DNA from: a virus
DNA length: 64,000 nt
Virus record (IMG/VR): IMGVR_UViG_3300021182_000253
Strand: one strand, 5' to 3'
Positions within the stretch are counted from its first letter, which is position 1. Each line of letters starts with the position of its first letter. Below the pieces are notes generated by a model, which searched no databases, was not told the origin of the DNA, and saw nothing but the letters and a program-made list of their open reading frames with translations. Made by a program: the position numbers and the translations under genes. Below are positions 2,937 through 63,988 of this stretch, one piece after another.

Positions 2937-3221
2937 TTACGATCTACCCAAGTAAATCAACATCTCATCTATTAAACTTGATTCAATATATCCAAGAGCA
3001 ACATTGCATCTATTGCATAACAAACCACGAAATTTTCCAGTTTTATGGTCATGATCAATATATACTTTGGTAAGATAAAAAGATATTTTACAAATTGCGC
3101 ACGCATTATTCTGAACAGGAAAATCACTATTCGACAGTACTTCAGCTACTTTATTAGCCGAATACAGTTGATTCACATACAAATCAATTACCTTGTCGTG
3201 AATTTTAGATAGATCCTTCAA
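2937..3221 (-). CDS. Endonuclease VII-like (His-Me) nuclease
   Basis: CAIC...IDHDHKTGKFRGLLCNRCNVALG. Confidence 0.85.
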   Translation of the reverse strand: MKDLSKIHDKVIDLYVNQLYSANKVAEVLSNSDFPVQNNACAICKISFYLTKVYIDHDHKTGKFRGLLCNRCNVALGYIESSLIDEMLIYLGRS

Positions 3222-4014
3222 CTAACCCATAAATTACATTATCGATGTGTTCAAATCTTCGTCTCATAACTTCAATAGCAATAGGGTTTTCGTCAATCAA
3301 GATACAATCTCTACTATGTTTATTTGCAGCCTCTCCGAAAGAGCCACTACCAGCAAAAAAATCCATAACCATATCACCCGGCATCGAATGAACTTTCACA
3401 ATTCTTTCTAATATTTTAAGTGGTTTTTGAGTGGGATATCCGGTCTTTTCCTTTCCATTAGTATGAACTATTGTATTCCACCAGCTATCCGTAACTACCT
3501 TGCCCTTTGATGCTTTATCTTTACCTACTAAACCAGGGGCCATATAGGGTATTCTGTCAGCTTCATCGTAATTAAAAGTGTAGTTCTTACTGTCTTTTGC
3601 ATACCAGAAGATGTTATTATGCTTTGCTGACCATTTCTTTTTGCTACGCCCACCATAATCAAAAGACCAGATGATTTCATTCATGAAATTTTCTCTGCCG
3701 AAGATTTCATCAGTCCATACTTTTACGTAGTGACATTCACGCCAATCTAAATGAATGAAGAAACTTCCATCATCAGTTAGTAGGCGATGAGCTTCCTGTA
3801 TTCTTGGTACGATGAAATCCTTGAAGTTATCAAAGGAATCTTTATAAGATTTATCTGCTCGCGCCTGAACTTTTCCGGTATTGAATGGCGGATCGATATA
3901 AATCAATCTAGCAAACCCATCTTGAAATGTACTCATAATATCTAAGTTATCGCCGTGGATGATTTGAATTGACATATTACTTATATAAAGTGTTCGACAA
4001 GTACCCAAGTGCAT
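3205..4014 (-). CDS. Site-specific DNA methyltransferase (N6A/N4C, beta class)
   Basis: IYIDPPFN catalytic motif precedes DFFAGSGS SAM motif; YPTQKP. Confidence 0.92.
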   Translation of the reverse strand: MHLGTCRTLYISNMSIQIIHGDNLDIMSTFQDGFARLIYIDPPFNTGKVQARADKSYKDSFDNFKDFIVPRIQEAHRLLTDDGSFFIHLDWRECHYVKVWTDEIFGRENFMNEIIWSFDYGGRSKKKWSAKHNNIFWYAKDSKNYTFNYDEADRIPYMAPGLVGKDKASKGKVVTDSWWNTIVHTNGKEKTGYPTQKPLKILERIVKVHSMPGDMVMDFFAGSGSFGEAANKHSRDCILIDENPIAIEVMRRRFEHIDNVIYGLVEGSI

Positions 4015-19017: not shown

Positions 19018-20115
19018 CTACCAAGAAGCTTCAACCATTTGAATACTTAACTCGCTTATCTTCTTCATATTTGGAGTATTTGGGAGTGGTGATGATGCAT
19101 AAAGAGTATCAATCTCTTTAGTTTGTTTATCAAACCACTCCATTAACTCAAAGAATGTCCATGCACCATTACGAATAGACAGAAGCTCTTCTGCATCTGG
19201 CCTACGTACACGCATAATACCATCAGTCATTAATTCCTTGCAGCATCTAGAGAGGCGCACAAGGTGCATGGCATGCTTACAATCGAAACCAAACTTAGCC
19301 TCTAGCTCTGCGCGAGCTGGGTTTCTATTCTTCTCCCAATCATTGAAGTGCTGCCAATCCCGCAGGCGGTTAGTATACAGCCTTTCCTTATCTAGGAATT
19401 CAATAAAGTTAGTTGAGAAACCAAGACTGTTAGCTGCAGCCAACCAAATCTTATCATCCACCTCCTCCACGCTCCAATTGGTAATCTCAGTAATACGACG
19501 TAGGAATTCATCCTGTATTTCTTGACGTACAGATGGCGTTAGACTCTCCATCTCATGCCAATTCCACTCATCACAGCGCCTTTTGACAGCTGCATTGGCA
19601 GCCATAATCTGATCGGTTGGGATGACAGTCCTAGAAGGCAATCCAAATTCCTCCCGAGTAGGCTGATGAGTTATGGGGTTTAATAACCACCGCCGATGAG
19701 TAAGAATTCTCTTCATCTGAGCATTAGCATATCCTTGGAAGGTAAACTTAACTCTCTTAGATAGAAAAAACTTCCTGCTATCAAGTAGCATTTGTCCTAT
19801 TTTAGATACGTGGAAATGGTCCTGCTCATCAGTAAATATGATTTCAAGAGCATTTGGATTACATTCCGATGCCAACTTGAGGAACTTGCGCAATTCAAAT
19901 ATAACCAAATCAGGATCTTTAGAGGTGGCTTGTTCGAAGTTATTGGTCATTCCTAAGTAGTATTCCTTAGGAGCAATTGCAATACCACGAATATCCAAAT
20001 CACTAGCTGGAGTTGATGTGCCATAGCACTGACTCCCGTGCCGTGTAAGATAGATAGTTCTTTCCCTAAGCCAATCAAGATTACCTATATATGTAGACCA
20101 ATCAAAATCTAACAT
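19018..20115 (-). CDS. Pol-beta superfamily nucleotidyltransferase (phage type)
   Basis: HGSQCYGTSTPASDLDIRG; KHAMHLVRL. Confidence 0.88.
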   Translation of the reverse strand: MLDFDWSTYIGNLDWLRERTIYLTRHGSQCYGTSTPASDLDIRGIAIAPKEYYLGMTNNFEQATSKDPDLVIFELRKFLKLASECNPNALEIIFTDEQDHFHVSKIGQMLLDSRKFFLSKRVKFTFQGYANAQMKRILTHRRWLLNPITHQPTREEFGLPSRTVIPTDQIMAANAAVKRRCDEWNWHEMESLTPSVRQEIQDEFLRRITEITNWSVEEVDDKIWLAAANSLGFSTNFIEFLDKERLYTNRLRDWQHFNDWEKNRNPARAELEAKFGFDCKHAMHLVRLSRCCKELMTDGIMRVRRPDAEELLSIRNGAWTFFELMEWFDKQTKEIDTLYASSPLPNTPNMKKISELSIQMVEASW

Positions 20116-20117
20116 GA

Positions 20118-20915
20118 TTACCTAATTTCTACTTTAGCCCCAATAAACTCCAGCCCCTGTTTGGCAAGATCTGCATCCCATTTAGATATTCCTGATAGAA
20201 CATTCTTTGGTGCATTCTCAACCAATTCTTTTGAAGCTGCCAATGACAAATCAGTATTCTCCCTAACCCATCTAATAACACGAAGTTTATTCATTCCAAC
20301 TTCGGTAAGAACTACATCGAATTCGGTTTTATCTTCACACCCATACTTTCCATCAGCTGCTAAACATCCGTATGCAGGAGCAGCTCCGTAAATTGGAATA
20401 ACCTTATAATTTACTTCATTTGGTGAACCATCATCGATTGAACCATATACAAATTCAATCGGTGGGAAGTCTTTAGGCCATACCTCAAACAAGAATTCAA
20501 AATTCTTTTGTATCCTATCGTAAGCTGAATCAGGAACATTATGAACATTCCTTGATTTAGCTACATCGATATCGGTATCCATGCACTTCACTTCAACATC
20601 ACAACCATATACCTGGGCTATTCTTATATATGGTGAAACATCATGGATTCTAACATTGGTATTATCAACGATAACCGTATCTGGTCGTCTTTCAGGATCC
20701 CCACTAATAGGTCCAGGTTGGAATACATTTATAAATCTACGTAAACAATCCTCATGCCCCTTGTGAGCTTCTTCCACACTCCAATGGTAATTCCCATCGG
20801 GATCTGTGAAGTAGTTGTCAGATGATACTATAATCTTTGAGCCTTTAATTGCCTTTGCCCACGTACTTTTGCCTGAGCCTGGCAGGCCCATCATAATAAT
20901 AACTTTCATAAACAT
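20118..20915 (-). CDS. P-loop (AAA_33/PNK-like) kinase fused to ribosomal protein bL12 C-terminal domain
   Basis: N-terminal GLPGSGKST, VIVDNTN, RNVHNVP; C-terminal KTEFDVVL..VG.NKLRVIR.VR..TDLSL..SKELVE.AP..V..GISK.DA......LE..GAKVEIR. Confidence 0.85.
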   Translation of the reverse strand: MFMKVIIMMGLPGSGKSTWAKAIKGSKIIVSSDNYFTDPDGNYHWSVEEAHKGHEDCLRRFINVFQPGPISGDPERRPDTVIVDNTNVRIHDVSPYIRIAQVYGCDVEVKCMDTDIDVAKSRNVHNVPDSAYDRIQKNFEFLFEVWPKDFPPIEFVYGSIDDGSPNEVNYKVIPIYGAAPAYGCLAADGKYGCEDKTEFDVVLTEVGMNKLRVIRWVRENTDLSLAASKELVENAPKNVLSGISKWDADLAKQGLEFIGAKVEIR

Positions 20916-20954
20916 CCTTCTAGCGACCGCCCGCTAAACCCTTGTCGCTCTTTT

Positions 20955-23235: not shown

Positions 23236-23531
23236 TTAATCACATCTTGTTCAATAAATCCATACTTAGCCATTCTACTATTCAAGCGTTCTTGCCCACC
23301 TTTAGCCAGGAACTTTTGGTATTTTTCCATACCAATATTGTATCCTTCTTCATCATATAAGAAACCCTCTTGATCTTCTGTTTCGGCAATGGCGGTTATT
23401 GCAAGCTGCCTCTTGTTATTACGATCAATATCAACAACCATAGCCAAGCCTAGAGGATGAAGAACCTTTCGATTGATTTCAAATATCAAACCATTATCTA
23501 TTAGGTATTTAGGATACTTACTTGATTCCAT
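23232..23531 (-). CDS. Hypothetical protein
   Basis: 99 aa coupled ORF. Confidence 0.6.
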   Translation of the reverse strand: MESSKYPKYLIDNGLIFEINRKVLHPLGLAMVVDIDRNNKRQLAITAIAETEDQEGFLYDEEGYNIGMEKYQKFLAKGGQERLNSRMAKYGFIEQDVIK

Positions 23532-25002
23532 CTGATCCTTTTAGTGGACGAACTTCACCATGAAGTCTCTTATATATACTATCAACAACCCTACGGCGAA
23601 CCCTTTGCAGATTCACAAGAGAATACATCTCGTAATGAGGTGGTATTCTAAAATGAGTAACTCTTACCTGGGTATTTTGAGGTACAGTACTCTTCATTTT
23701 TATATTGGAAAATGTATAATATTCTACTTCTGATAATAATGACTTACCACTTTCATCAGTAATATCGCAAAGCAAACCAATGAAGCATGGACCGTTGCAC
23801 TTAGCCCCCACGAATATCTCGTAGGTATTATTGGAAACAAGTCCACTTTCTCTTACGTATGAGTTGTATTCGCTGGTTCCCAAAAACAGATTTAGGCAGG
23901 GATCGAGTAGAGAAAATACTTCAATGAGATGACCTTCGTCATCTACCACCTCAAATGGCAAACGGCTTTCAATAAGCTGAATATACTTTTGGAAAATCAA
24001 ACTTTGTATTGGCCGTTCACCAAGCGATTTACCATGGATAAGATATCCAATCATTCCTGCAGGATCTTGATTAAGAAGAGATTCGAATGCTTGGTACATC
24101 AAATACTTTTTGATAATCTTAGACATTGGCAACTTTGAAAAATTTGCCTTCTGAGCAGAAATAACAGACTTAGCAATCTTCAATTCCCTATTATATTTTT
24201 CCGTTTGCTCAATTTTGATATCTGGATTTATCTCTTGCGCATCCAGTCTGTCTTGAAATTCAGGAACGTGTGAACCATATGAATTGCTAATCGGAGCATT
24301 CAAACTCACAGTAGAACCAGAGCTTTGTCCTAAAGGATGCGCCATCGCATCCAGCTCAGGCATTATTCCAAACCAAGAGCAGGTATCGTATGGGCAACTA
24401 ACTCGAATTGACTCGTTGGATTTCAAATACGATTCTGGAATGAATCTTTCGCATCCAGGACATCTACAACCTCTCCTAGAATGTATTGAAAATACCTTCC
24501 TAAGTCTGTAGGCGTATTCATCCCTGGAGCCTCTATTCTTGGTAGTTTCAAGCCGAATACTTTCTTGAGTACATGTTTGGCAACGAAGCATCTTCCCGTC
24601 ATAGACCAAATATTCGCGCTCCCCCAACGCCTTACAGGCTGGACAAATTGGAATTGAGATCTTCTTTATGAAATCTACATCTGACTTCAGACTATCAGCT
24701 AATTTTGAAAGGCAGGTGAGAAGATAAGGTCCAATGCTTCTACCAGATCTCCAGTGCTGGCTCTTGAATATAAATGTGTATATACCTTTGCGCAGGGTGG
24801 TAGCTGCATATTCCTTGAATGCAGATAAAGCAACACCATGTCCAGCTCCATAGACATAAGATGAAAGGGTATGGACCCTTGAAGAAAAATGATCCATCAA
24901 TTCATCAACTAACGAATCAGGAACATTTTCCCATGATCTAATGTCGTCTTCAGCTAGCTTTGATGCATTACTATTGATGTTATTGATTGGATTGATTTCC
25001 AA
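23518..25002 (-). CDS. Hypothetical protein with Zn-binding modules; possibly a divergent sigma-like factor
   Basis: CPAC/CQTC/CPGC/CPYDTC; VSLNAPI...EFQDRL resembles sigma region 3. Confidence 0.6.
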   Translation of the reverse strand: MEINPINNINSNASKLAEDDIRSWENVPDSLVDELMDHFSSRVHTLSSYVYGAGHGVALSAFKEYAATTLRKGIYTFIFKSQHWRSGRSIGPYLLTCLSKLADSLKSDVDFIKKISIPICPACKALGEREYLVYDGKMLRCQTCTQESIRLETTKNRGSRDEYAYRLRKVFSIHSRRGCRCPGCERFIPESYLKSNESIRVSCPYDTCSWFGIMPELDAMAHPLGQSSGSTVSLNAPISNSYGSHVPEFQDRLDAQEINPDIKIEQTEKYNRELKIAKSVISAQKANFSKLPMSKIIKKYLMYQAFESLLNQDPAGMIGYLIHGKSLGERPIQSLIFQKYIQLIESRLPFEVVDDEGHLIEVFSLLDPCLNLFLGTSEYNSYVRESGLVSNNTYEIFVGAKCNGPCFIGLLCDITDESGKSLLSEVEYYTFSNIKMKSTVPQNTQVRVTHFRIPPHYEMYSLVNLQRVRRRVVDSIYKRLHGEVRPLKGSDGIK

Positions 25003-31548: not shown

Positions 31549-32343
31549 TTAATCCATATTACTGGAATCAAAATCAAATTCTTCGTCATCATCCTCGTCA
31601 TCATCCTCGTCTTCATCTGATGATGCTTCATCACTTGGACTTTCCAACAATTCTTCTACCTTCGTGATGGTCTCGGCGAAGTTCTTAACCTTCCTAATTG
31701 CGTCCTCAATCAAAGAAAGTTCCTTGCCGGTTTTGCTAGCTATGTATGCTGCATTGTAGTCATTGGCATCGACCAATGACATAACAGCCTTTGCACCCAA
31801 GAATAGATCTTGGCAAACATTTGCCAATACCTCATCAACACCAAACTTAAGAAGTGCCTGTTCCAATGTTGGAACTTCTTCTTCGTCAGATTTACTTTCA
31901 TCAGGATCAATTCCGTAAATGAATTGAAGATCTGAACGGAGATCTTGTAGAAGTTCTCCCATCATATTCTGGCCTTCACCGCTTCTACCAGTTCCCCAGA
32001 ATTCATCATAACCCTCCATGACGATTGGTAATCCGCCTGTCTTCACAAGCATTTCAGATAAAGAAATCGCTTCAAACTTCTGACGTATAAGAAGCTTCAT
32101 GATCTCTTCACCATTAAAATTATCTCTCTTCTTCAGAGAGCGGACAATCTTGCGGGCTTCACGAACACTTTCAGTCTCGGCAATCTGCTGCCTAATCTCA
32201 CGGTCATTTGTCTTAGATGCCTGATAAGCATGTTCAAGAGTTGGGAATGTTATACCGCCAAGAACGATATTAATCCTGTAATCATTTCGAAGCCAATCGA
32301 TATTACCAACAATAATCTTTTCCATTATATTTCCTTCTTCCAA
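31549..32343 (-). CDS. NADAR (YbiA-like) protein with an acidic C-terminal extension
   Basis: FPTLEHAYQASK, QKF, FWG...GQNMMGELLQDLR. Confidence 0.85.
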   Translation of the reverse strand: MEEGNIMEKIIVGNIDWLRNDYRINIVLGGITFPTLEHAYQASKTNDREIRQQIAETESVREARKIVRSLKKRDNFNGEEIMKLLIRQKFEAISLSEMLVKTGGLPIVMEGYDEFWGTGRSGEGQNMMGELLQDLRSDLQFIYGIDPDESKSDEEEVPTLEQALLKFGVDEVLANVCQDLFLGAKAVMSLVDANDYNAAYIASKTGKELSLIEDAIRKVKNFAETITKVEELLESPSDEASSDEDEDDDEDDDEEFDFDSSNMD

Positions 32344-39106: not shown

Positions 39107-39230
39107 CGCAGTCGAGGTGAAATGCTTGTTTTGGTACGTAATATAGGAATTGAACCTATTGATGTTTTCGTGATAGGAAAACGCTCAACCATTGAGCAAA
39201 TTGCGTGTAAGCATCTCGAATTTGACTGCG
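39107..39230 (-). tRNA. Element B: tRNA (core 39132-39206, anticodon AUC, encoded CCA) nested in the same closing module as element A
   Basis: Full cloverleaf ACGCAAU/AUUACGU, GCUC/GAGC, UUUUC-CUAUCAC-GAAAA, AUAGG-UUCAAUU-CCUAU, ACCA; flanks nearly identical to element A. Confidence 0.8.
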
Positions 39231-44951: not shown

Positions 44952-45488
44952 ATGAAAGTAATTCCACTAACACAAGATCAAGTGGCGTTTGTTGATGATG
45001 ATATGTTTGAATATCTTAATCAGTGGAAATGGTACGCCGATAAGTGTGGAAACACTTATTATGCTTGTCGTAATGTATACAATTTTGGACCAGAAAGAAA
45101 ACATATAAGGATTAAAATGCACCATGCTGTATTTGGGCGTAACGTTCAAATAGACCATGCTGATGGAAACGGTTGCAACAATCAAAAAGAAAATCTAAGA
45201 GAGGCTTCTTCACTTGAGAACAGCAGAAATCGTAAAAAGAATACGGGCTGTTCTAGTAAATACAAGGGTGTTTATTGGAATAAATCACACCAAAAGTGGG
45301 AAGCCTCAATTAGGGTCGGTAAGCCTCTGCGGGATGGCCGTCACTGCAAAATGTATTTAGGTAATTTTGATAGTGAAATTGAAGCCGCAAAAGCTTATGA
45401 TCAACAAGCGATTAAGTTCGGTGAATTTGCCAAACTAAATTTCGCAATCAACTCGCCCACGCAGGTTTGTGTAGCAAATCAACCTTGA
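44952..45488 (+). mobile_element. HNH-AP2 homing endonuclease inserted antisense within the operon
   Basis: IDHADGNGCNNQKENLR; SSKYKGVYW...YLGNF..EIEAAKAYD. Confidence 0.88.
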
Positions 45489-46907
45489 TGATCTTATCCA
45501 CCAAGGTTTCTCGAACAAACGAGTATGCAGCTGCCGGAGCTTGTCGAACCGGAGTTGCCGCAATCAAGTTTCGAAGAGTACGCGGAGTTGCATAAACATC
45601 TTCAAATGTTCGATTGTCGATATTGAAGCAAGGAATATTAAGCTTTGCTGCCGTATCAACAACACAAGAACCACGGTCACCTGGCACTTTGATCAAACCA
45701 AAAGCCATTGGGCGAAGTCCGGAATTCCGAACATCATTCTCGAAGGTTGGGTGTTGACCTTCATCACCAACGAAGACAATGATTGAATCTTCGTCATCCT
45801 TTGGCTTGAATTTAGATATATGGCGTACACCACAGCCGTAATCTGTTCCACCGCTTGCACGGAAGCCCATGAAAGCATTGTCGATACCAGCCTTACTTGC
45901 AACTCGTAGAGGAACTTCACGAGCTTGTGTGTTGAATACACAAGCGTGAATATGATCAAGTGGAATTCCTTGAACGAATTTAGCCACATATTGTTTTGCC
46001 ATTTCTAAAGAAGCATTCATAGAACCAGAGATGTCTACGACGAAATAGATCCTGATTCCTTTAATTACTTCTTCAGCTGCTTTCTTGATGGCATTATCAG
46101 CACCATCTTGTAACTTCTCCTTGATTTCATTTGAAGTTACATTGCGTGCAATATTGGCTGAGCGCATATCTTCTGAATTCTTGATAGCGCGTTCCCAACG
46201 AGCCTTGATGTCATGAACATTAAGTAGTCCTAACTCTTCAAGAGTAGGAGTTCGAATGATCAAGTCCTTATCAGACATGAGATTCGCCTCAATGATTGAT
46301 GCCATGATTGCGCGGGTCAGACCAATATTCTTCGGCAACATGCCCTCAACTCGCTTGAGGCCAATGCGCTCGGATTGAATCCGCTCACAGATTTGCTCTT
46401 CGTTTAGGCCTTCCCAAGACTCTGCCTGAGTGACCGCAACTCCAATAGCCATCTCACGACGGCCATCTTCTGCTTGCTTCTGCTTCCAGCGCAGAAGCTC
46501 GAAGAACTTAGGAGATGTTGGCTTGTAGCCGACACGCTGTGCGAGGCTCATGACGGTGCTTCGGAAACCAGCCTTGATCAAACCCTCAAGCAACTTGGGG
46601 TTCTCTTCACGATACTGCAGCCACTTATCAACAGTCTTTGCCCAGCGCCCAATGAACGGCTTGCGATCGGAGCGAAGACTTGGCGATACATCCAAGCAGC
46701 AACTTCTGGGAAGATGCCAGCTTCACGATATTCACCCAAGACCGCGCCATTGGCGGTGACGATCTTCTTGTCTTCGCGTAGGATTCCGATTTGGGTCTTG
46801 GTGGTTTTCTTGCCAGTTTTCGCTAGCTTATAAACCAACTTCTGCCCGCCCACGATCTTGTGCGTAACAGGTTCCCATCGAACGCCAATTATGTATAAGG
46901 TGATCAC
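45448..46907 (-). pseudogene. vWA-domain protein split by a frameshift/deletion at about 46675
   Basis: Upstream ORF (46578-46907) ...AAWMYRQV joins out of frame to RSDRKPFIGRW... of the 415 aa ORF; C-terminal vWA MIDAS FVVDISGSM, GGTDY, VGDEG. Confidence 0.75.
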
Positions 46908-49891: not shown

Positions 49892-51187
49892 TCACTTACG
49901 TCCATGGTTTTCCTCACTGATACCCTTGACACATAGAACTTGCTTGAGAGTATGTACTATTGAAACTAAGTCTGCTTGTGCAGCCATGACATCTTCTATT
50001 GGCTTGTACGCTCCTGGTGTTTCATCAATTACATCAGATTCAATACGGCATTCTACGCCTTGAACTGCTGCTCGATGGTCCTTCAAACTGAAGGTGTTGC
50101 GCGCTTCGGTGCGGCTCATCTTTCGCCCAGCACCATGAGATGCTGAACAAAAGCTTTCTCTATTGCCAAGGCCGCTCACAATAAAGCTCTTGTCTCCCAT
50201 AGATCCTGGGATAATTCCAAGTTCGCCCTTACGAGCGCTGATGGCTCCTTTGCGAGTAACCCATACTTTCTTGCCAAAATGGAATTCATTTTGGACATAG
50301 TTGTGATGACAGTTGACCTGAAGATCAGTTGCCTCGAACTTTGGAATGCCTTTGCAGCCCTTCAAAGTCTTGAGTACAGTACGCATCATCAAGTCACGAT
50401 TCATAGCCGCAAATTGCTGAGCCCATTTAACTGACTCAATAAAGTCATCAAAATACAAACTATCCTCTGGTAAAAACGAAAGGTAGATATCTGGCAAGCT
50501 ATCATTAAAGAACCACTTGATAGCCTCGCGCTTTGCAAGGTCGATGAAGTAAGATCCAATACGATTACCAACACCACGGCTTCCCGAATGTAGCATTACC
50601 CATACGCTATCATCTTCATCCAAACAAAGTTCGATGAAATTATTTCCAGTTCCAAGGGTTCCTAATTGGTTCTCTGGTGGCTGACGCGTTTTCAGTCTTG
50701 CATGCTTGGCAACAATCTTCTGATAGCCTGGCTCTAATTCAGCCCAGGCAATTTCTACGATTGAAGGTACTTCCCCGCGCCATGAGCCAATGTCATGTAC
50801 GCCGCCATTATCAGATCGTCCATTTGGAACAGCTGCTTCAATTTCAGAACGGATTGCAGCCAAGTCTTTCGGCAAGTGAGATCTCTTTAATGTGGTTTGA
50901 ACACAGGCCATTCCACATCCTATGTCAACTCCAACAGCCGCTGGAATGATCGCAGTGGTCGTTGGGATAACAGAGCCGATAGTAGCCCCTTCGCCAACGT
51001 GCACGTCAGGCATTGCCGCTACATGGCGGAATATGAATGGCATATTGGCAACGTTGAAGAGTTGCTTCTGCGCGCCTTCTTCTACAGTAACCCCAACAGT
51101 CCAGGACTTGATTGGAAATTTAGCTCCAGTAATTAAGTTAATGTTATCATGACGATAAACATTCATGTTTGAGTAATCGTTTGCCAT
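49892..51187 (-). CDS. rtcB: RNA 3'-phosphate/5'-OH ligase RtcB
   Basis: MPDVH, VGVDIGCG, GTLGTGNNFIE, LHSGSRG, HHNY, SASHGAGR, DETPGAYK. Confidence 0.96.
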   Translation of the reverse strand: MANDYSNMNVYRHDNINLITGAKFPIKSWTVGVTVEEGAQKQLFNVANMPFIFRHVAAMPDVHVGEGATIGSVIPTTTAIIPAAVGVDIGCGMACVQTTLKRSHLPKDLAAIRSEIEAAVPNGRSDNGGVHDIGSWRGEVPSIVEIAWAELEPGYQKIVAKHARLKTRQPPENQLGTLGTGNNFIELCLDEDDSVWVMLHSGSRGVGNRIGSYFIDLAKREAIKWFFNDSLPDIYLSFLPEDSLYFDDFIESVKWAQQFAAMNRDLMMRTVLKTLKGCKGIPKFEATDLQVNCHHNYVQNEFHFGKKVWVTRKGAISARKGELGIIPGSMGDKSFIVSGLGNRESFCSASHGAGRKMSRTEARNTFSLKDHRAAVQGVECRIESDVIDETPGAYKPIEDVMAAQADLVSIVHTLKQVLCVKGISEENHGRK

Positions 51188-51789: not shown

Positions 51790-52130
51790 TTTCCGTTCTT
51801 GGTTTGTTTTTTGAGACCAACAATTAATCTGGTAAGAGTTTCTGATGGTATTTGTCCAATGAATTTACCAGAGGAACAAATGATAGTAACCTTTTCCACT
51901 TGAGATATTTTACAAACACCTCCATCTCTTCCTTGTTTTATTTCGTATCCTGTAATTATTCCACTTTTAATACACAAAGATAAAGCCTTCTTGAACCGAT
52001 CTATCTCCAAACCAGATTTGGCTCTGCTCTCGAATTTTGAGAATATTACAGAACGTGGAACAACTTTTCCTTCTTTGCAACAATCTTGGAGTACAGAGAT
52101 TAGAATTGCCAGATGATCTTCTTGCATCAA
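51786..52130 (-). CDS. Hypothetical protein (possible winged helix)
   Basis: Coupled ORF. Confidence 0.55.
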   Translation of the reverse strand: MMQEDHLAILISVLQDCCKEGKVVPRSVIFSKFESRAKSGLEIDRFKKALSLCIKSGIITGYEIKQGRDGGVCKISQVEKVTIICSSGKFIGQIPSETLTRLIVGLKKQTKNGN

Positions 52131-52912
52131 AAATCTCGCTCTGGTCTGAAGATATCACTTCCGGTTGTTAGTATAGTTCGAAGTCTTTCCCTTTCTTTCT
52201 TATCAGCGAATAGAGGTACATCAAAATCCAATATCCATTTGTGGTGCGTAACCTCTCCCTCTGCTGTTTGGACTAGCCTGGGGGCTACGTACGCGGCAGA
52301 TCCATGATGGAATGATGCCGGAAAATCATCGAGCGATATGCCGGCATCGTCAAGTATCTTCTTGCGCTCCTCTACACCTACACCATTTAAAGCGGCACTG
52401 CGCCCTATAAGCGAGTAGATTGATTCATCAATGGCGTACTGCATACAACAAAACTGCCTATACATTATGTAGTTTATTACTTCGCTAATATTTGGAATAC
52501 CAAATACATTTGCTTTAAAAGCTATACTGCCTTCAAGCTCTGGGGGCTGGTCGATTTCCCATAGTTGATTCATGAACTCGTAGGTTGCCATCGATGCTGA
52601 TGACGAGCACATGTCCTGAACATCATTTCCGAACCAAGGATCTTCATCTTCGCTGCGGTCATTGCGCAGAGCAATTATGATCTTGTCCGAGTATTGGTAG
52701 CCAAATACCGCGCCGTCAATTTGCTTGACGAGAGATAACATGGTTCCGTTGAACATCGCCATTGTTTTATGACAGAAAGGCTTCTGTATATTTTGGGTGG
52801 CTCTTGAAAATGAGCGACCATCAATTTTTATTATAACTGGGATTCTACTGATTATTCTCTGCGAAGTAGATCCCTCATAGGCTATCATTCTCTGCTTTAG
52901 TGTTTGAGCCAT
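52127..52912 (-). CDS. tRNA(His) guanylyltransferase Thg1-like protein
   Basis: IKIDGRSFSRAT and YQYSDKI (both catalytic Asp), F.ANVF..P. Confidence 0.85.
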   Translation of the reverse strand: MAQTLKQRMIAYEGSTSQRIISRIPVIIKIDGRSFSRATQNIQKPFCHKTMAMFNGTMLSLVKQIDGAVFGYQYSDKIIIALRNDRSEDEDPWFGNDVQDMCSSSASMATYEFMNQLWEIDQPPELEGSIAFKANVFGIPNISEVINYIMYRQFCCMQYAIDESIYSLIGRSAALNGVGVEERKKILDDAGISLDDFPASFHHGSAAYVAPRLVQTAEGEVTHHKWILDFDVPLFADKKERERLRTILTTGSDIFRPERDF

Positions 52913-53212: not shown

Positions 53213-53743
53213 TTACCAGATGAGGTATTTGGGCGGCACTGTTTCGGTTAGCCAAACGTTGTTGGTTGAGCGTTTGAACTGATAGCCGTCCGCTGACATT
53301 TGTTTTGCGCTAATAGTCAAGACACAAGGATTCCTACGCCGCTTCTTTGCGATGTCAAGCGCTTTATCTTTGTCATCGAACAGATGAACATCATGGCGTT
53401 CCATCTTCAACAATCCAAGTTCTGATATTCTTTTATTGTTTTCGTTAGATGTTCCGTGATAGAGAAACTCTGGTGGTTCAATTATCTCATATCCAAGATC
53501 AACATCAATCGAATGTCCCTGGCTAGCGCGAATGTTCTTTTTGTTCTCGCTGAATTCGAAGCGTTTCTTATCATTCTTTTCAACAACTTCTTCTAGCTCA
53601 GACAAATTCCATTTGATAGATTTAAGAAGATTATTTACTGATACCCACCCTTGCTCATCAAGAGTTAGCCCAGCTTTAGATGGATCATGTCTTAGAATAA
53701 GGCTAAGGTATTTGCTTCTTTTTATTAGTTCTTTTGATTCCAT
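53213..53743 (-). CDS. kptA: RNA 2'-phosphotransferase Tpt1/KptA
   Basis: SKYLSLILRHDP, IRASQGHS, LYHGT, VHL, VWLT..VP. Confidence 0.95.
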   Translation of the reverse strand: MESKELIKRSKYLSLILRHDPSKAGLTLDEQGWVSVNNLLKSIKWNLSELEEVVEKNDKKRFEFSENKKNIRASQGHSIDVDLGYEIIEPPEFLYHGTSNENNKRISELGLLKMERHDVHLFDDKDKALDIAKKRRRNPCVLTISAKQMSADGYQFKRSTNNVWLTETVPPKYLIW

Positions 53744-53746
53744 TAT

Positions 53747-55126
53747 TTACCATCTTGAAAGAGATATTGATAGTTGGTTTTCTTGAGCCCATTTCTGAAT
53801 GATTTTGAATTCTTCAGATGTTGATTGTCTATTACGCATGCCGCGTACCTGTGATATTTGCCTGCCCCTAACCTCAATGGTAACGGCTCTATCACCATTA
53901 AATGTCATTGACCATATTGAGCAATGGCCTTGTTCGATAGACCACGAATAAGAGAGTACACAATGCTTAAGTGCAGAGCCCTCGGCATGAAGTAGTTTCG
54001 ATGTTAGGATTTCATTGATGTCACAAGTTAAAGTAACAGAGTTACCATCTGCAGTGCGATGCTTGAATTCGTAATGCCCCGCCTTAATACCAGATGGCTT
54101 ATATTCTTTCCCAACAACAGCCCTGCGCTTTGCAAGGTCTGCGTGCCACTCCTCCATCCCGCGCATCATTGCTAGAACACTGCGCCCCTTCATAGAGAAG
54201 TCTTCTCTAAACCCTCCTTCTGCGATTGGCCGGTTATAGCGATACCAAATATAATCACAGAGCGGCCCGAACTGCTGCATGTCCATCATTGGATTTCGTG
54301 AGAACCAATGAATAACAGAATCGAGAAATGTTTCATCTCTGATGCTTGATAATTTATTACCAGCATCGCGCATCATCAAAGCCTTCAATAGCCTCTTATC
54401 CCCGCCGTGGCTTTGAATCTGTACACGCCTAAGCGCATTCATGAATGTGCTATCTGAAGTTGAATTTAGAAATTCATGACATTGTTTATTGGTTAATGTA
54501 ACCGGAAATTCTCCGGACTTGCACATCTTTGCAAAGCTATCTCCACGGGCTATTTTGATGACAGCCAGAATTATTGCATGTTCTCCTATTGGGCATCCAT
54601 CAACAGTATTTAGAAGGGCACGTGCCTGCGTAACTGATCCTGGTATCTCTGGTCTTGGTTCGGCACAGTAATTAAAGACTCTAAGATCGTTGCGAACAAC
54701 ATCTTGTTCCCAAAAGGCAGACCAAATAAATTGCGGCGTTGAAAATTTTGCCAGCAAATGATCGCAAAGAGAATTGAAGATTGTAGTCTTTCCCTTGCCG
54801 CGAGGTTCCCAGTCCTTGATGTGCCTGAAGTGATCCAGTATGCTTACGAGGCGCACTGCATGTATATATTCTTTATCCAGGAGTTTCGGCGCTTTTTTCT
54901 CAATGGCCAGCCAGAACTCGGTTGGTTCTTCACCTATAGATTTATCTTCACCTATAAATTTAATAGAATCCAATAATGATCTCTTCTTGTTATTATTCGC
55001 AATAGCTTCTTCGACGAGCTGGTTTTCCTTTTCAGCCTCGGCATCGAGACGCAGCTTTATCTGGCGCTCTTCGGCGCGTTGCGAATTGACCCAATCTCGG
55101 GTCGCTTCTCTACTCGAACGTTTCAT
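53747..55126 (-). CDS. PcfJ-domain protein
   Basis: KGRSVLAMMR..EEWH..L; LHAEGSALKHCVLSY...SIWS...TIEV...QVRG.RN. Confidence 0.8.
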   Translation of the reverse strand: MKRSSREATRDWVNSQRAEERQIKLRLDAEAEKENQLVEEAIANNNKKRSLLDSIKFIGEDKSIGEEPTEFWLAIEKKAPKLLDKEYIHAVRLVSILDHFRHIKDWEPRGKGKTTIFNSLCDHLLAKFSTPQFIWSAFWEQDVVRNDLRVFNYCAEPRPEIPGSVTQARALLNTVDGCPIGEHAIILAVIKIARGDSFAKMCKSGEFPVTLTNKQCHEFLNSTSDSTFMNALRRVQIQSHGGDKRLLKALMMRDAGNKLSSIRDETFLDSVIHWFSRNPMMDMQQFGPLCDYIWYRYNRPIAEGGFREDFSMKGRSVLAMMRGMEEWHADLAKRRAVVGKEYKPSGIKAGHYEFKHRTADGNSVTLTCDINEILTSKLLHAEGSALKHCVLSYSWSIEQGHCSIWSMTFNGDRAVTIEVRGRQISQVRGMRNRQSTSEEFKIIQKWAQENQLSISLSRW

Positions 55127-58793: not shown

Positions 58794-59321
58794 TCATCCA
58801 AAAACGTTCATCAAACCAAAACCAAAAGCCTTCCCGTGCCCGATGCCAGTATGTACCACACTAGCAAATCTTTCAAGATCCGTCACGTTCAAAAAACCCG
58901 TCACAAACACTGATGAGTGACAACATTTCATTCCCTTGCGATCACTCACCATCGTACCTTCGTCAATGACCACCTTGGACCGAATATCTGCCCCAATGCC
59001 AGACAACTTACCATCTACCCAAGCATGAAGCCGGTCCCGATAAACCGGAAACCTTCGTCTCTTGTTGGACTTGACCGCGTTGAGCCGAATCGCAAACTGT
59101 ACGTCACCAGAAAGACTCGATAACGCCTGATCGGTTGTCTTGGCGAATTGTATTTCAAAGTTATCAGCAAACTTAGGGTCAATTTCCAGATCTGTTTCCA
59201 CTACCAACCGAGCGCCAACCTTTTGGAACAACAACTTACCATCGCCAGGGAAGATTTCCTTAGCCATTTGATGATTCTTGTATCCGTCCTCGTACGCCCG
59301 ATGAATGATGTAGACTTTCAT
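58794..59321 (-). CDS. cas6: Cas6 crRNA endoribonuclease (Cas6e-like)
   Basis: GIGHGKAFGFGL G-rich loop, FAIRLNAVK, N-terminal His; adjacent to the leader. Confidence 0.88.
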   Translation of the reverse strand: MKVYIIHRAYEDGYKNHQMAKEIFPGDGKLLFQKVGARLVVETDLEIDPKFADNFEIQFAKTTDQALSSLSGDVQFAIRLNAVKSNKRRRFPVYRDRLHAWVDGKLSGIGADIRSKVVIDEGTMVSDRKGMKCCHSSVFVTGFLNVTDLERFASVVHTGIGHGKAFGFGLMNVFG

Positions 59322-60250
59322 TGTTGAGCCTTGTGGTATCCAGCAACTACCATATCAAGCGTTGTGTTCTGCAAGTCACAAACCCGATCAATTCGGACCA
59401 AACCACCATCAAAAATAGTGGCGCACCCATTGCCATTACCAAACAGACCCAACTCTTTGGTGAAAACTGGTATGCAAATCCGCCCATCTAACCGAATCAC
59501 ATCGCATACACCTTTAGTCACTAGCGTCCTGAGGTATGGGCCAAGACCTTGATAGCCAGCCTGATATAAACCATTATCCTTGTTCCCTTCTAAGAGCTTC
59601 GCCAATGGCTCACATCTACTTTCCCTAGCTTTAACCACCAGCTTATTAACCCTAGCATCCTTGCTTTTCAAGAGAGTGTTTGCAACCTTCTCAAACAGCA
59701 TCTCCTCGGCATTGCCACCGCAAATATCGCTAGCAACCACGACCAATTCTACATATAGCTCATCTGGTAAAAGGTATTTAAACCTAATCCAGCTTGGAAT
59801 AGCATATGACCAGCTATTATGCATACACTTTCTAATAGTCATCTTCTCGGTTAGATATACTACGTTCCCTTCCTTATCCTCTTTTGTAGCATTGTCTATA
59901 TGAACAAAAGAACGCTTGGCAATTGCGACGAAGTTACCATAACTATTTACACAGGTTGGACGGTACCTGCTGATTGGGCGCATACCACACAAAACCCTAA
60001 TCACATTCTCAATAAATGTAGCGTGAATCGTGTTCACTTGTTGCTCGACCCATTGAGATTGGATTCTATTATTACGAGATTTACCAATAAATATTCGGTC
60101 ATCCTTCGATCGGCTGGTCATCGTTCCATCTACATCCTTCCAACGCTTTGGAAAGATTCCCGCATTCTCAAACCTGAGCACTAATGCGTAATCGTATGGC
60201 GGCATGATTTCCCCTGCATGTAAACAAGGAATTAAGGTTGATGGAGGCAC
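59318..60250 (-). CDS. cas5: Putative Cas5-like RAMP
   Basis: LVLRFENAGIF beta1, HATFIENVIRVLCG helix, C-terminal GNGNGCATIFDGG loop; position in the operon. Confidence 0.6.
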   Translation of the reverse strand: MPPSTLIPCLHAGEIMPPYDYALVLRFENAGIFPKRWKDVDGTMTSRSKDDRIFIGKSRNNRIQSQWVEQQVNTIHATFIENVIRVLCGMRPISRYRPTCVNSYGNFVAIAKRSFVHIDNATKEDKEGNVVYLTEKMTIRKCMHNSWSYAIPSWIRFKYLLPDELYVELVVVASDICGGNAEEMLFEKVANTLLKSKDARVNKLVVKARESRCEPLAKLLEGNKDNGLYQAGYQGLGPYLRTLVTKGVCDVIRLDGRICIPVFTKELGLFGNGNGCATIFDGGLVRIDRVCDLQNTTLDMVVAGYHKAQQ

Positions 60251-60254
60251 TGAT

Positions 60255-61331
60255 CTACTTTTTCTTTGCAGCTGGCTTGGCAGGTTTCTCTTCCTTCACC
60301 GGCTTCTCGTAGCCAAACTTCTTCTTGTAACTATCGCATTTTTGTAATGCCTCTTCCTGCAGCTTCACTTTGGTGTAGGCCGTTGCAAAAGACTCGCCAT
60401 CAAAAGCGCTAACATCGAATTTTTTACCATCAAAAATCTCAACCCAACCATCTGGATTGCCGAATAAATCCTCCAGAGGGTCGCTGACGATCTTGATGCT
60501 CACCGACGCCGTCTTGGCGCTTCCAGTAACAGTTCGAACTACATTGAATAGCGCCAATCGCCGAAGAATGTTCGTGGTTAGGAATTTGACCTGTGCCTGC
60601 GTAAGCAAAATTCCACACTCAGGAATATCATACACATCACCATTCTTCTGGAAGAACGCAGGCTCCGGAATTTCTGAGCCCATCCGCCCTTTCAGAAGCT
60701 CGCGATATCTGGCGGCGTAGTCTAGGTCGAAACTCAACCGGTCATGGACATCGCTAAGCGAAATGAATGCCAACTCGCTCACATCAATAGCCCCGGAAAG
60801 TTCATAAGTAGTATCGCCTCGAACTTCTCGCTTGAAGAATGATGTTTCTGCCACGTCTTCCGTTTTGTTCTCGCCAGTTTTTGGTTGACTGTTCGAGTAT
60901 GTCTCTAGCATCGGGGCCGAACTAGTCACTGCCCTGGCATAGGATAATGCAAATGCAGACTTTCGCTTCCAACTTGAGCGATTGTCACGAGCAAACATAT
61001 ACCCGCGCTCCAGAAATGCCGGATGAGCCACCGTGCTGAGTAACAAACCATCATCATGCATGACATTCGGAAGATGAATGAACATACAATCCTCATACAT
61101 ACTGTGACGAATGCAGTCCGCTGATATGACACCTACTTTTTTTAGGTATTCCCTATCGTCACCGTCACGCCCCACCTCTGGATAGTAACGACCTTTGCCA
61201 AAGGACACGTTGTTGTGCCAAACGCTTTCTACATTGCGCTGTCGGTTCCAAATAAAGCGTTGGTCGTTGGAATCGAAGTTGACAATCCCAGAACCTTCAA
61301 TAACTGCCTTTATGAAAATTGATTTAATCAT
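60255..61331 (-). CDS. cas7: Putative Cas7-like backbone subunit
   Basis: 358 aa; GSGIVNFD, GVISADCIRHSM (ISxxxxR-type motif), ERGYMF; position in the operon. Confidence 0.65.
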   Translation of the reverse strand: MIKSIFIKAVIEGSGIVNFDSNDQRFIWNRQRNVESVWHNNVSFGKGRYYPEVGRDGDDREYLKKVGVISADCIRHSMYEDCMFIHLPNVMHDDGLLLSTVAHPAFLERGYMFARDNRSSWKRKSAFALSYARAVTSSAPMLETYSNSQPKTGENKTEDVAETSFFKREVRGDTTYELSGAIDVSELAFISLSDVHDRLSFDLDYAARYRELLKGRMGSEIPEPAFFQKNGDVYDIPECGILLTQAQVKFLTTNILRRLALFNVVRTVTGSAKTASVSIKIVSDPLEDLFGNPDGWVEIFDGKKFDVSAFDGESFATAYTKVKLQEEALQKCDSYKKKFGYEKPVKEEKPAKPAAKKK

Positions 61332-61353
61332 GTTATCCTATCTGTTACTTTCT

Positions 61354-63699
61354 TCACACTCGCGCTTTGACGAGACCAAGCGTTGCATCGTAGTACCACG
61401 TAAAGATTGGTAGTGGTGTTTCTCCACAACGAGCAAATGGCTTCAGGTTTTCAACCGTTAGCCTCTTTGGTTTCTTCTTACCAAAGAACATTTTCGTTAG
61501 TTCGGCATAGTCAAACTCACCTGTGGCCTCTAACGATTCCCATACCGTTTTCAATGTAGAAGATTCTATTCTTCTTCTATTATCAGCAATCAGATCCTTC
61601 AGTTCGATGTCTTGAACATTGAATGTGAAAGGGCACCAAACTCCAGTTGTTCTGTTTTTCACCACAATAAAACACGAACTCGAACTATTCCTCAGCGTCT
61701 TGGCAGTTACAACTTTACTCTTGCCACTCTGATGTTTGCGCGCCCTTGGGAAGAATGTCTTCAACTTATCAATTGATATCAGATACTTATTTTTAATAAA
61801 CGCAACTAGCTCATCGTTGTAAACCTTATTGAATTTGTTATACAATCGGTATAGGAAATCCAAATCAACTGGTTCGGATGCCTCGCCCTCTAACATACGG
61901 CTCCAAAGATCCGATAGATGACAGCTGTACCGTTCGCTGATGGCCGACCTCTCACCTTTATTACTCCTAAGTTTAAGCATGACGAGTTCACATACCCCGT
62001 CTTGTTCTCCCCATCGGTTGATTCTTCCGAAAGTTTGTATATCGGATTCTGGTGATTCTATGGTTTTGAATAGCCCTCTGAAGCTGATGTCAAGAGCGGC
62101 CTGTAGAATCGGCGCTGAAACCACAGTGCCATTCTTATCACCACCCTTCCCAAATGACTTAAGAATTCCATTCATTATCGCATGGCGATCTGGTTCTCCG
62201 TAGTTACTATGAACGATGCTAGTGTATCCGTTGCCGTAGCACCCTTGAACATTTCTGATCGATGAGTACATTGTCAAAGAACCACCAATTGGGTGTTCAA
62301 CAAAGTCTTCATCGAAAGATATCTTGTAAAGCTTCTTATGCTGTGCTAGATAATGTTCAGTTGGATTTGGAAGGATTTTTGTCCTTCTAGATTCACCTTC
62401 ACCTTCCCAGAATTTATGCATTATCGATGGGGTAGCTGAGAGTAGCAGTGTATGACTGTTCGCACATACCAGATTGCGCGCCCTCATATAGATGACAAAC
62501 GCCCCAAACAAAGCCTCATCATTAAGGAATTCATGAAACTCATCAAGTACCACATTGCGAGCTGTAACATCAAACAACCTCGCAATCGATTTTGAATCAA
62601 CCATTGGCGATAGAAGGTTGTCAATATTGGTTACCACAATGTCACAACCACAATCTGGTACACTTGGTGAGTTGGTAGCTTTACGCTCTCCTGCGTGGTA
62701 CAGTTCAATGGAGATTGTACCAAGTCCAAGGATATCAATCTCCTTCAATAGATTTAAATATACACCTTCAGCAACTGCATTTCTTGGGCATACCCAATAC
62801 ACCGGTCCGGACTTCTGGGCTCCCCACATCAAACCAACCAGCGACTTACCAAATCCCGCAGAACCTTTTACTAATGTCGTTCGTTCACAAGAGTTTACAA
62901 TGTCCTTTTGAATCTGAAATCGTTCCTGGTCATATGTGATTGGACATTGAAAATTTTCGTACCTTATATCCCTTCCCTTAGGGAAGTATGAATCAGCACT
63001 ATTTTCAATCAGGTCATCCAGCTCTTCTATCGATAGCTTGGATACAATGTGGTCGGAGAAGATAACGCAACTCCTGGCAATCATGCGATGAGCGTTGGTC
63101 AGGCTACTTTCATCACCATCATCGGTAAACAACCTTGGAATATTGCGAGGTTCGTCATCAACGTCATCCTCTAGGTACTTGGTGACATCAAATGGGAACT
63201 GAACAGACTTCAGAATACCATCAATTGTCTCTGATATCTTCGTCCATTCGTTTTCATCGAATAGTTTCAGCTCGCCAATGACGGTATGTGTGTTTCTAGG
63301 AGAGGTTTGATCTAAAATCTCGTACGAATTCAGCAACGTACCGTGATGCCAATAGATCGCCTGCGGCCCGATGTCTTTGAACCGAACACCACGACCCTTG
63401 GCCTTTGCATGAAATGTCGCATATACCCATGAAATCTCATTGTGCCTTGGATATTCATGCTGTCCAGAGTATTTAGGATAATGCTTCTGTTTATTCTCCT
63501 CGCTATAGTCACTAGCCAAGGAAATGTTGTTAAAATATACGGTACACTTCCCAATGTCATGAAGGAATGCCGACAAACCAATCACGTTGATTAGATCGTC
63601 ATCGGAAATCCCAAGGTGCTTGGCGCAATGCATAGCTAACATCATCGCACCAACGCAGTGTTTTGTAAGTTCTTGTCTGTGGTCTGAATTAGCTAGCAT
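61354..63699 (-). CDS. cas3: Cas3 HD nuclease-SF2 helicase
   Basis: HCV..., LHDIGK, HNEIS, WHHG (HD domain); AGFGKS, DEFH, SATP, QTFGRINR (helicase); start refined to MLANS. Confidence 0.93.
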   Translation of the reverse strand: MLANSDHRQELTKHCVGAMMLAMHCAKHLGISDDDLINVIGLSAFLHDIGKCTVYFNNISLASDYSEENKQKHYPKYSGQHEYPRHNEISWVYATFHAKAKGRGVRFKDIGPQAIYWHHGTLLNSYEILDQTSPRNTHTVIGELKLFDENEWTKISETIDGILKSVQFPFDVTKYLEDDVDDEPRNIPRLFTDDGDESSLTNAHRMIARSCVIFSDHIVSKLSIEELDDLIENSADSYFPKGRDIRYENFQCPITYDQERFQIQKDIVNSCERTTLVKGSAGFGKSLVGLMWGAQKSGPVYWVCPRNAVAEGVYLNLLKEIDILGLGTISIELYHAGERKATNSPSVPDCGCDIVVTNIDNLLSPMVDSKSIARLFDVTARNVVLDEFHEFLNDEALFGAFVIYMRARNLVCANSHTLLLSATPSIMHKFWEGEGESRRTKILPNPTEHYLAQHKKLYKISFDEDFVEHPIGGSLTMYSSIRNVQGCYGNGYTSIVHSNYGEPDRHAIMNGILKSFGKGGDKNGTVVSAPILQAALDISFRGLFKTIESPESDIQTFGRINRWGEQDGVCELVMLKLRSNKGERSAISERYSCHLSDLWSRMLEGEASEPVDLDFLYRLYNKFNKVYNDELVAFIKNKYLISIDKLKTFFPRARKHQSGKSKVVTAKTLRNSSSSCFIVVKNRTTGVWCPFTFNVQDIELKDLIADNRRRIESSTLKTVWESLEATGEFDYAELTKMFFGKKKPKRLTVENLKPFARCGETPLPIFTWYYDATLGLVKARV

Positions 63700-63700
63700 A

Positions 63701-63988
63701 CTAAAAATCCTCTCCCTCTTTGAACACCTCAACCGCGCCGTGGTCCATTACAACCACAGTGTTGACCATCCATGCCTCTCGTAGCTTCTGGCCTTCCAGC
63801 GGGTCAAGTTCATCCAAGATTCCCTGCAGTCCCTCGCGCCCGGCAAGCCCACGCGCGAACGGAACCTCCCCAAGATCACGGAACTGTTGCCAATCGTGGC
63901 CGGGCATCAGGATGTCTGCCACCGCGCCGCCATGAGGATCGTCAACGTTGAGCAGCACGATAACCACTTCGGATGGTCGCCGACCCAA
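63701..63988 (-). CDS. GC-rich small hypothetical protein upstream of cas3 (may be 5'-incomplete)
   Basis: 95 aa ORF whose stop abuts the cas3 RBS; the frame may extend off the window. Confidence 0.45.
   Translation of the reverse strand: MGRRPSEVVIVLLNVDDPHGGAVADILMPGHDWQQFRDLGEVPFARGLAGREGLQGILDELDPLEGQKLREAWMVNTVVVMDHGAVEVFKEGEDF

Follow-up and report, generated by a model that had tools for sequence, protein, structure and literature searches.

Why should a phage join a P-loop kinase to a domain of the ribosomal stalk in one polypeptide, and is the joint real? [quoted passage not shown] Our analysis bears this out (Table 1). The reading frame is single and stop-free over 265 codons, and Pfam matches to AAA_33 (residues 5–124, E 6e-13) and to Ribosomal_L12 (residues 199–264, E 8.5e-20) both lie above the gathering cut-offs. 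Met3 is the likely start of the gene; an AAGGA Shine-Dalgarno-like motif is located 5 nt upstream of it, and database gene calls give a protein of 263 aa. The AlphaFold model of the fusion protein (mean pLDDT 85.7) consists of two confident domains with a low-confidence linker between them.

Table 1. Features of the kinase-bL12CTD locus and of the RNA-repair genes in the window (residue numbers refer to the 265-codon frame).
Feature	Coordinates	Strand	Basis or remark
Whole kinase-bL12CTD ORF	20118..20915	(-)	265 aa; likely start Met3 at 20909, giving 263 aa
N4BP2/PNK-like P-loop kinase domain, residues 3-156	20448..20909	(-)	Pfam AAA_33, invariant columns, folds
Kinase P-loop, residues 10-17	20865-20888	(-)	
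Other kinase motifs: Asp33; DNTN at residues 84-87; lid Arg122-Asn123			
Variable low-confidence linker, residues 157-193	20337..20447	(-)	pLDDT, length variation
bL12 (L7/L12) C-terminal domain, residues 194-265	20121..20336	(-)	PF00542, fold, residue table
RlaP nucleotidyltransferase, 365 aa	19018..20115	(-)	PF10127 E 5e-23; phrog_388
RtcB RNA ligase	49892..51187	(-)	PF01139 E 3e-118
Thg1-like guanylyltransferase	52127..52912	(-)	PF04446 E 2e-17
Tpt1/KptA RNA 2'-phosphotransferase	53213..53743	(-)	PF01885 E 3e-46

A missing stop or a frameshift, for which the earlier note had singled out positions 20330–20420, is not present there. Four other contigs, drawn from JGI and Logan assemblies and in some cases possibly derived from the window's own samples, match the fusion gene with 0 nt differences, and positions 19966–20942, which include the whole gene, are unchanged in a contig from another study. 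A metatranscriptome contig, for which DNA carry-over is possible, holds 20265–20520 unchanged across the kinase-CTD junction. The search for the same architecture in other phages found it in five further lineages (clusters at 52–73% identity), intact on many contigs; the fragments P0206, P0095 and P0010 are further fused relatives, and one fused relative bears the JGI label 'ribosomal protein L7/L12/predicted kinase'. Because the identical gene recurs elsewhere, an RNA contig spans the junction and five other lineages carry intact fusions, an assembly or sequencing artefact joining two genes is refuted. Nor does any close locus examined hold a split form, with a separate CTD gene beside an unfused kinase, which the earlier note had regarded as evidence against a fusion. 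The kinase-bL12CTD fusion is genuine and conserved in this huge-phage clade. The reading of it that we tentatively prefer is that of an RNA 5'-healing kinase with an optional CTD, which would tether it weakly to translation factors or ribosomes.

The best solved folds for the kinase domain are PSTK, which is the top structural match, T4 PNK, Pnkp and fungal tRNA-ligase-type kinases, while N4BP2L1 (TM 0.77, rmsd 1.6 Å) and N4BP2-like clusters are structural neighbours; the fold is thus closest to N4BP2-like, PNK and PSTK kinases. N4BP2 has been described as having a PNK domain (PMC6598757), and a GenBank phage homologue of the kinase carries the name NEDD4-binding protein. The P-loop GxxGSGKS, the catalytic Asp, the DNTN motif and the lid Arg are invariant or near-invariant among 20 kinase orthologues (columns G10, G15, K16, D33, D84–N87 and R122–N123), and these motifs align with the P-loop, catalytic Asp, DTN and lid Arg of T4 PNK. 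However, Arg38 of T4 PNK is not conserved, the site reading S-D-N-Y-F with Phe at the Arg38 position, which counts against the preferred reading. From sequence and fold, an RNA 5'-kinase activity is nevertheless probable.

The genes around the kinase point to RNA repair. RlaP, which has been reported to add NMP to the 3'-OH of damaged RNA (PMC12776372), starts 2 nt after the stop of the kinase-CTD gene; its Pfam match covers only residues 19–141 and that to the T4 NrdC.11-like PHROG 388 spans 14–365. RtcB, Thg1 and Tpt1 are located about 30 kb upstream. The earlier note had proposed an RNA end-modification pair with the adjacent nucleotidyltransferase, and the end-processing role beside RlaP holds up, but a tie between RlaP and the fusion does not. 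RlaP directly follows three of six fused genes (window, P0003 and P0008) and also the unfused kinases of L013/L024, L017, L019 and L021, with an HNH gene between the two in L023, whereas it does not directly follow P0004, P0005, P0006 or P0009. Since RlaP comes after half of the fused and most of the unfused orthologues, the pairing of kinase and RlaP, though common, is independent of the fusion. The RlaP genes of L019 (6487–8745) and L021 (6464–8674) appear by eye to contain inteins of about 390 aa with Cys...His/Gly-Asn-Cys ends, and a RecD-like helicase at L019:9845–12373 likewise appears by eye to contain one.

More distant kinases are found in similar company. A 32%-identical relative in Vibrio phage 184E37 overlaps an Rnl1 gene that adjoins a phosphoesterase (order phosphoesterase-Rnl1-kinase), and an unrelated 318-kb phage holds Rnl1, a calcineurin-like phosphoesterase, EndoV, RlaP, the kinase and Thg1 in one cluster (L076:1738–7938; also L028 and L077). 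For short stand-alone kinases, Rnl or RlaP lies nearby in 8 of 40 loci against 4 of 59 controls (p=0.049), a marginal statistic from a test designed after the data were seen. The L076 cluster also includes a 123-aa gene (3007–3378) with a weak match to the bL12 helix pair (Pfam E 0.004, under the cut-off). The phage genes at L083:7773–7970, L035:7647–8111, L091:7365–8087 and L259:823–1962 encode, of the bL12 CTD, just its two factor-binding helices; those of L083 and L035 are above the Pfam cut-off. Separate genes of this kind lie near distant kinases in 4 of 98 loci against 0 of 65 controls, which is not significant (p=0.13).

This gene context bears on the end of the RNA at which the kinase may act. 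According to the RlaP preprint, the product of RlaP suits 5'-phosphate ligases, and its use by RtcB would require an RNA 3'-kinase that is still undiscovered. It could be supposed that the phage kinase is that enzyme, placing a phosphate on the 3'-OH left by RlaP so that the phage RtcB can ligate, with the CTD as an accessory. The kinase abuts RlaP, PSTK acts at the tRNA 3' end, T4 Arg38 is missing, and both the window and G001, an 84-kb relative, encode RtcB. Neither yielded an RNA ligase of the ATP-grasp (5'-phosphate) type in a search whose PF09511 profile matched no control either, and RtcB without such a ligase in two fragments leaves a small opening for a 3'-kinase. However, family members elsewhere adjoin Rnl1 or Rnl2 ligases, which need a 5'-phosphate, the more distant relative G005 has two Rnl2-type ligases, the genomes are only 14–19% sampled (the window and G001 both being fragments), and the description of N4BP2 as a PNK also speaks for the 5' end. 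We therefore consider a 3'-kinase very improbable. A 5'-kinase, on the other hand, does not serve RtcB because RtcB needs a 5'-OH, and this counts against the preferred reading, as does the failure to find an ATP-grasp ligase in these two fragments.

Between kinase and CTD lies a linker of about 37 aa, with pLDDT below 50 at residues 176–194 and a length that differs by about 30 aa among fused homologues. The earlier note had called it hinge-like. It is flexible, but the motifs conserved in it have nothing in common with the bL12 hinge: the Ala-rich look is confined to the window's copy, relatives share IDDG..P and P-x-YGC instead, and only where it enters the CTD, with E-[DE]-K-x-E-F, is it bL12-like. 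By its motifs, then, the linker is no bL12 hinge.

The CTD itself is unmistakable. It scores 71.3 bits with PF00542 against a cut-off of 25.9, and its model superposes on E. coli 1CTF with a TM of 0.95 and an rmsd of 0.9 Å. The dimerisation and uL10-binding N-terminal domain (NTD, PF16320) has no Pfam match in the fusion protein, the N-terminus being occupied by the kinase, so the CTD cannot join the ribosomal stalk. A positively charged site on helices 4–5 of the bL12 CTD has been reported to bind IF2, EF-Tu, EF-G and RF3 (PMC6753160). Among eight fused CTDs compared (E. coli numbering), this basic patch of the domain that the earlier note had described as the docking site for translational GTPases is largely kept, with K or R at positions 65 (7/8), 70 (8/8), 73 (7/8) and 84 (7/8) and L80 in all eight. 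The window's copy has K65, I69, R70, R73, L80 and K84, and differs from E. coli by K70R, K81A and E82A; K70R alone weakens EF-Tu binding about 2.4-fold, from 0.74 to 1.81 µM (PMC10602876). A predicted complex between the CTD and residues 2–291 of E. coli EF-G scored 0.56 and one control 0.37, and we draw nothing from these scores for or against binding.

Beside the patch, the clade has fixed changes of its own: A71W and K95L/I (8/8 each), D101Y/W and A83S (7/8 each) and G79S (6/8), with K81 mostly hydrophobic; A71W is accompanied by L106A (7/8). K95, G79, A83 and K81 are invariant in cellular bL12. These clade-wide substitutions suggest that the CTD has been remodelled, which counts against the preferred reading; with the basic patch kept, the domain appears to be maintained but remodelled. 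Selection points the same way. In pairs among three lineages, dN/dS is 0.21–0.28 for the CTD (below 1 with p<1e-4 in the two pairs tested) and 0.09–0.10 for the kinase, so the estimates indicate that the CTDs are mostly under purifying selection, weaker than that on the kinase, the latter point again speaking against the preferred reading. So does P0008, where the CTD looks relaxed (dN/dS 0.66–0.96 in pairs, with K65I and R73V).

Several of these observations fit a rival reading, an RNA kinase of the same kind with a repurposed CTD. Here the domain would bind no factor and would instead stabilise, oligomerise, contact another partner or decay as a near-neutral passenger. Fixed changes at positions invariant in cellular bL12 (K95L, G79S, A83S, hydrophobic K81), together with A71W and D101Y/W, fit it, as do repeated loss of the domain (below) and the relaxation in P0008. 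So do P0060, P0245 and P0246, in which multiple bL12 CTDs stand in tandem, six on a predicted lipoprotein and two on AAA ATPases, settings in which a CTD is unlikely to bind factors; as these arrays and fusions indicate, the bL12 CTD is a promiscuous module. However, seven of eight copies retain the surface patch, for the most part with K or R, and 7/8 combine A71W with L106A, a pairing that suggests a compensated repacking of the core and not decay. Repurposing is possible, if rather doubtful, and for a targeting role of the CTD we see about even chances.

How the domain was acquired is clearer. When placed in a tree with one full-length phage bL12 and 32 cellular bL12 sequences, all eight fused CTDs group together (support 100/97), and hence trace to one capture. 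The full-length phage protein, that of G003 (L258:1324–1704), is a 126-aa bL12 with NTD on a large viral contig, related to the clade via a helicase; it stands outside any ribosomal operon and has a sigma-like gene downstream. As a donor it was rejected, its identity to the fused CTDs (22–47%) being below that of cellular bL12. The best bL12 matches, at 58%, are uninformative as to the host of the phage.

Kinases with and without the CTD are interleaved in the tree of the kinase domain, with six changes on the best tree, at least three of them forced by well-supported branches. At least five relatives with DNA context lack the CTD, a point against the preferred reading, and the closest kinase found (L019, 81% identity) is unfused. 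In unfused kinases the frame closes at a true stop, and no remnant of the CTD lies nearby. In P0009 the linker is followed directly by the final three residues of the CTD, a clean deletion seen at the protein level on a single contig. All close homologues with enough context share one syntenic site, with a papain-like gene on one side and HSP20/helicase on the other. The interleaving, the true stops and the P0009 deletion show that the CTD is optional. Repeated loss and recombination of the linker-CTD block both fit, and with so poorly rooted a kinase tree the two are inseparable. In our searches the pairing of kinase and CTD appears restricted to this clade; among cultured phages none matches over both domains, and none matches the clade marker at 23518–25002.

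An 84.6-kb fragment of a relative is rated 19% complete, which puts the genome at roughly 450 kb, that of a huge phage. The sequencing runs that cover the sequence best, with those of small word share left out, are peat metagenomes. Promoter and repeat scans gave chance-level results only. The window also encodes type I CRISPR-like effectors (58794–63732, minus strand: Cas3 with HD, a Cas7/DevR-like protein, an unknown 310-aa gene and a Cas6e-like protein), an ARAGORN tRNA-Asp with an unusual ATC anticodon that may be degenerate (39132–39206, minus strand), and NADAR, vWA and PcfJ-like genes (31549–32343, 45448–46695 and 53747–55126, minus strand) typical of jumbo-phage conflict and repair kits. 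Genes for IF3, bS21 and peptide deformylase are present too, so the phage tunes translation.

Such a phage might use the CTD as a decoy or competitor that titrates host GTPases, as the earlier note had contemplated, or host defence effectors acting at the stalk-factor interface, the kinase being a passenger or a kinase of factors. An action on translation has been proposed for phage bL12 domains (PMC6375957), and without an NTD the protein is no stalk protein. All close folds of the kinase, however, are RNA, tRNA or small-molecule kinases and not protein kinases, and the CTD is dispensable, having been repeatedly lost. A monomeric CTD with K70R is a poor competitor against the very abundant EF-Tu, and blocked elongation would hurt the phage's own synthesis. 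Neither a decoy nor a protein kinase is thus borne out, and we regard this explanation as unlikely. A GTPase (PF00009) is not encoded in the G001 fragment.

The RNA 5'-healing kinase with an optional tether is the explanation that we tentatively rank first. A host bL12 CTD would have been captured once, by an ancestor in the huge-phage clade, and attached through a flexible tether. The kinase would act as an ATP-dependent, N4BP2/PNK-like RNA 5'-OH kinase in a phage RNA-repair kit with RlaP, RtcB, Tpt1 and Thg1, healing the ends that host ribotoxins leave when they cut tRNA or rRNA. The basic patch may bind weakly to translational GTPases such as EF-Tu, the tRNA carrier, or EF-G, or to the factor-binding centre of the ribosome, and the tether would raise the kinase concentration near damaged translation RNA; it would improve targeting yet be dispensable. 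A bolder version, which we rate as somewhat unlikely, makes the captured domain a portable address tag that directs an enzyme of RNA repair to the ribosome or to tRNA bound by EF-Tu, so that ribotoxin damage is healed in situ. Its strongest form, which further casts the kinase as the missing RNA 3'-kinase between RlaP and RtcB, is highly unlikely on its own.

Why phages keep bL12 domains in unrelated proteins has been a question since 2019. In the present case its carrier is a small enzyme whose activity is predictable and easy to assay, and fused, unfused and deleted natural orthologues stand side by side, so the question of the tail is directly testable. If the tail binds factors and aids repair of ribotoxin-cut tRNA, a ribosomal domain would have been reused as a counter-defence targeting module. 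The same assay would also establish the activity of a widespread, uncharacterised phage kinase family, PHROG 2071.

N4BP2/N4BP2L1-like kinases (Pfam AAA_33; PHROG 2071) share the S-D-x-Y-F, DNTN and RN-x-H-x-VP motifs with the phage kinase, but have SMR/CUE domains where the bL12 CTD stands at the C-terminus here. T4 PNK (PseT) and Pnkp, with Rnl1, resemble it in the kinase fold, the four motifs and the RNA-repair gene context. In contrast to them, the fusion protein has no HAD or metallo-phosphatase domain, the bL12 CTD taking the place of the phosphatase; it also lacks an Arg38 equivalent, is only 20–24% identical, and has no ligase gene adjacent to the kinase in this clade. Cellular bL12 (rplL) and full-length phage bL12 share the CTD fold, with up to 58% identity, but the fusion lacks their NTD and Ala-rich hinge and scores 68 bits, under the TIGR00855 cut-off of 84.4.

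The closest precedent is that of Mizuno et al. 2019 (PMC6375957). The earlier note was correct that stand-alone phage bL12 is known, but bL12 domains inside larger phage proteins, with homologues that lack the domain, have been published as well, the examples being 418-aa proteins of Salmonella phages FSL SP-058/076 and a 724-aa protein of Erwinia phage Ea9-2. A kinase fusion is not mentioned in the parts of that article and its supplements that we consulted, and no report of the kinase-bL12 CTD pairing was found in the literature open without subscription. Those proteins and ours are alike in an embedded bL12 domain with factor-binding residues kept, in domain-less homologues and in independent captures. 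They differ in that the partner here is a P-loop kinase of the RNA-repair type, the carrier is a clade of roughly 450-kb phages and not small podoviruses, and the domain bears the clade-specific substitutions W71, L95 and Y101.
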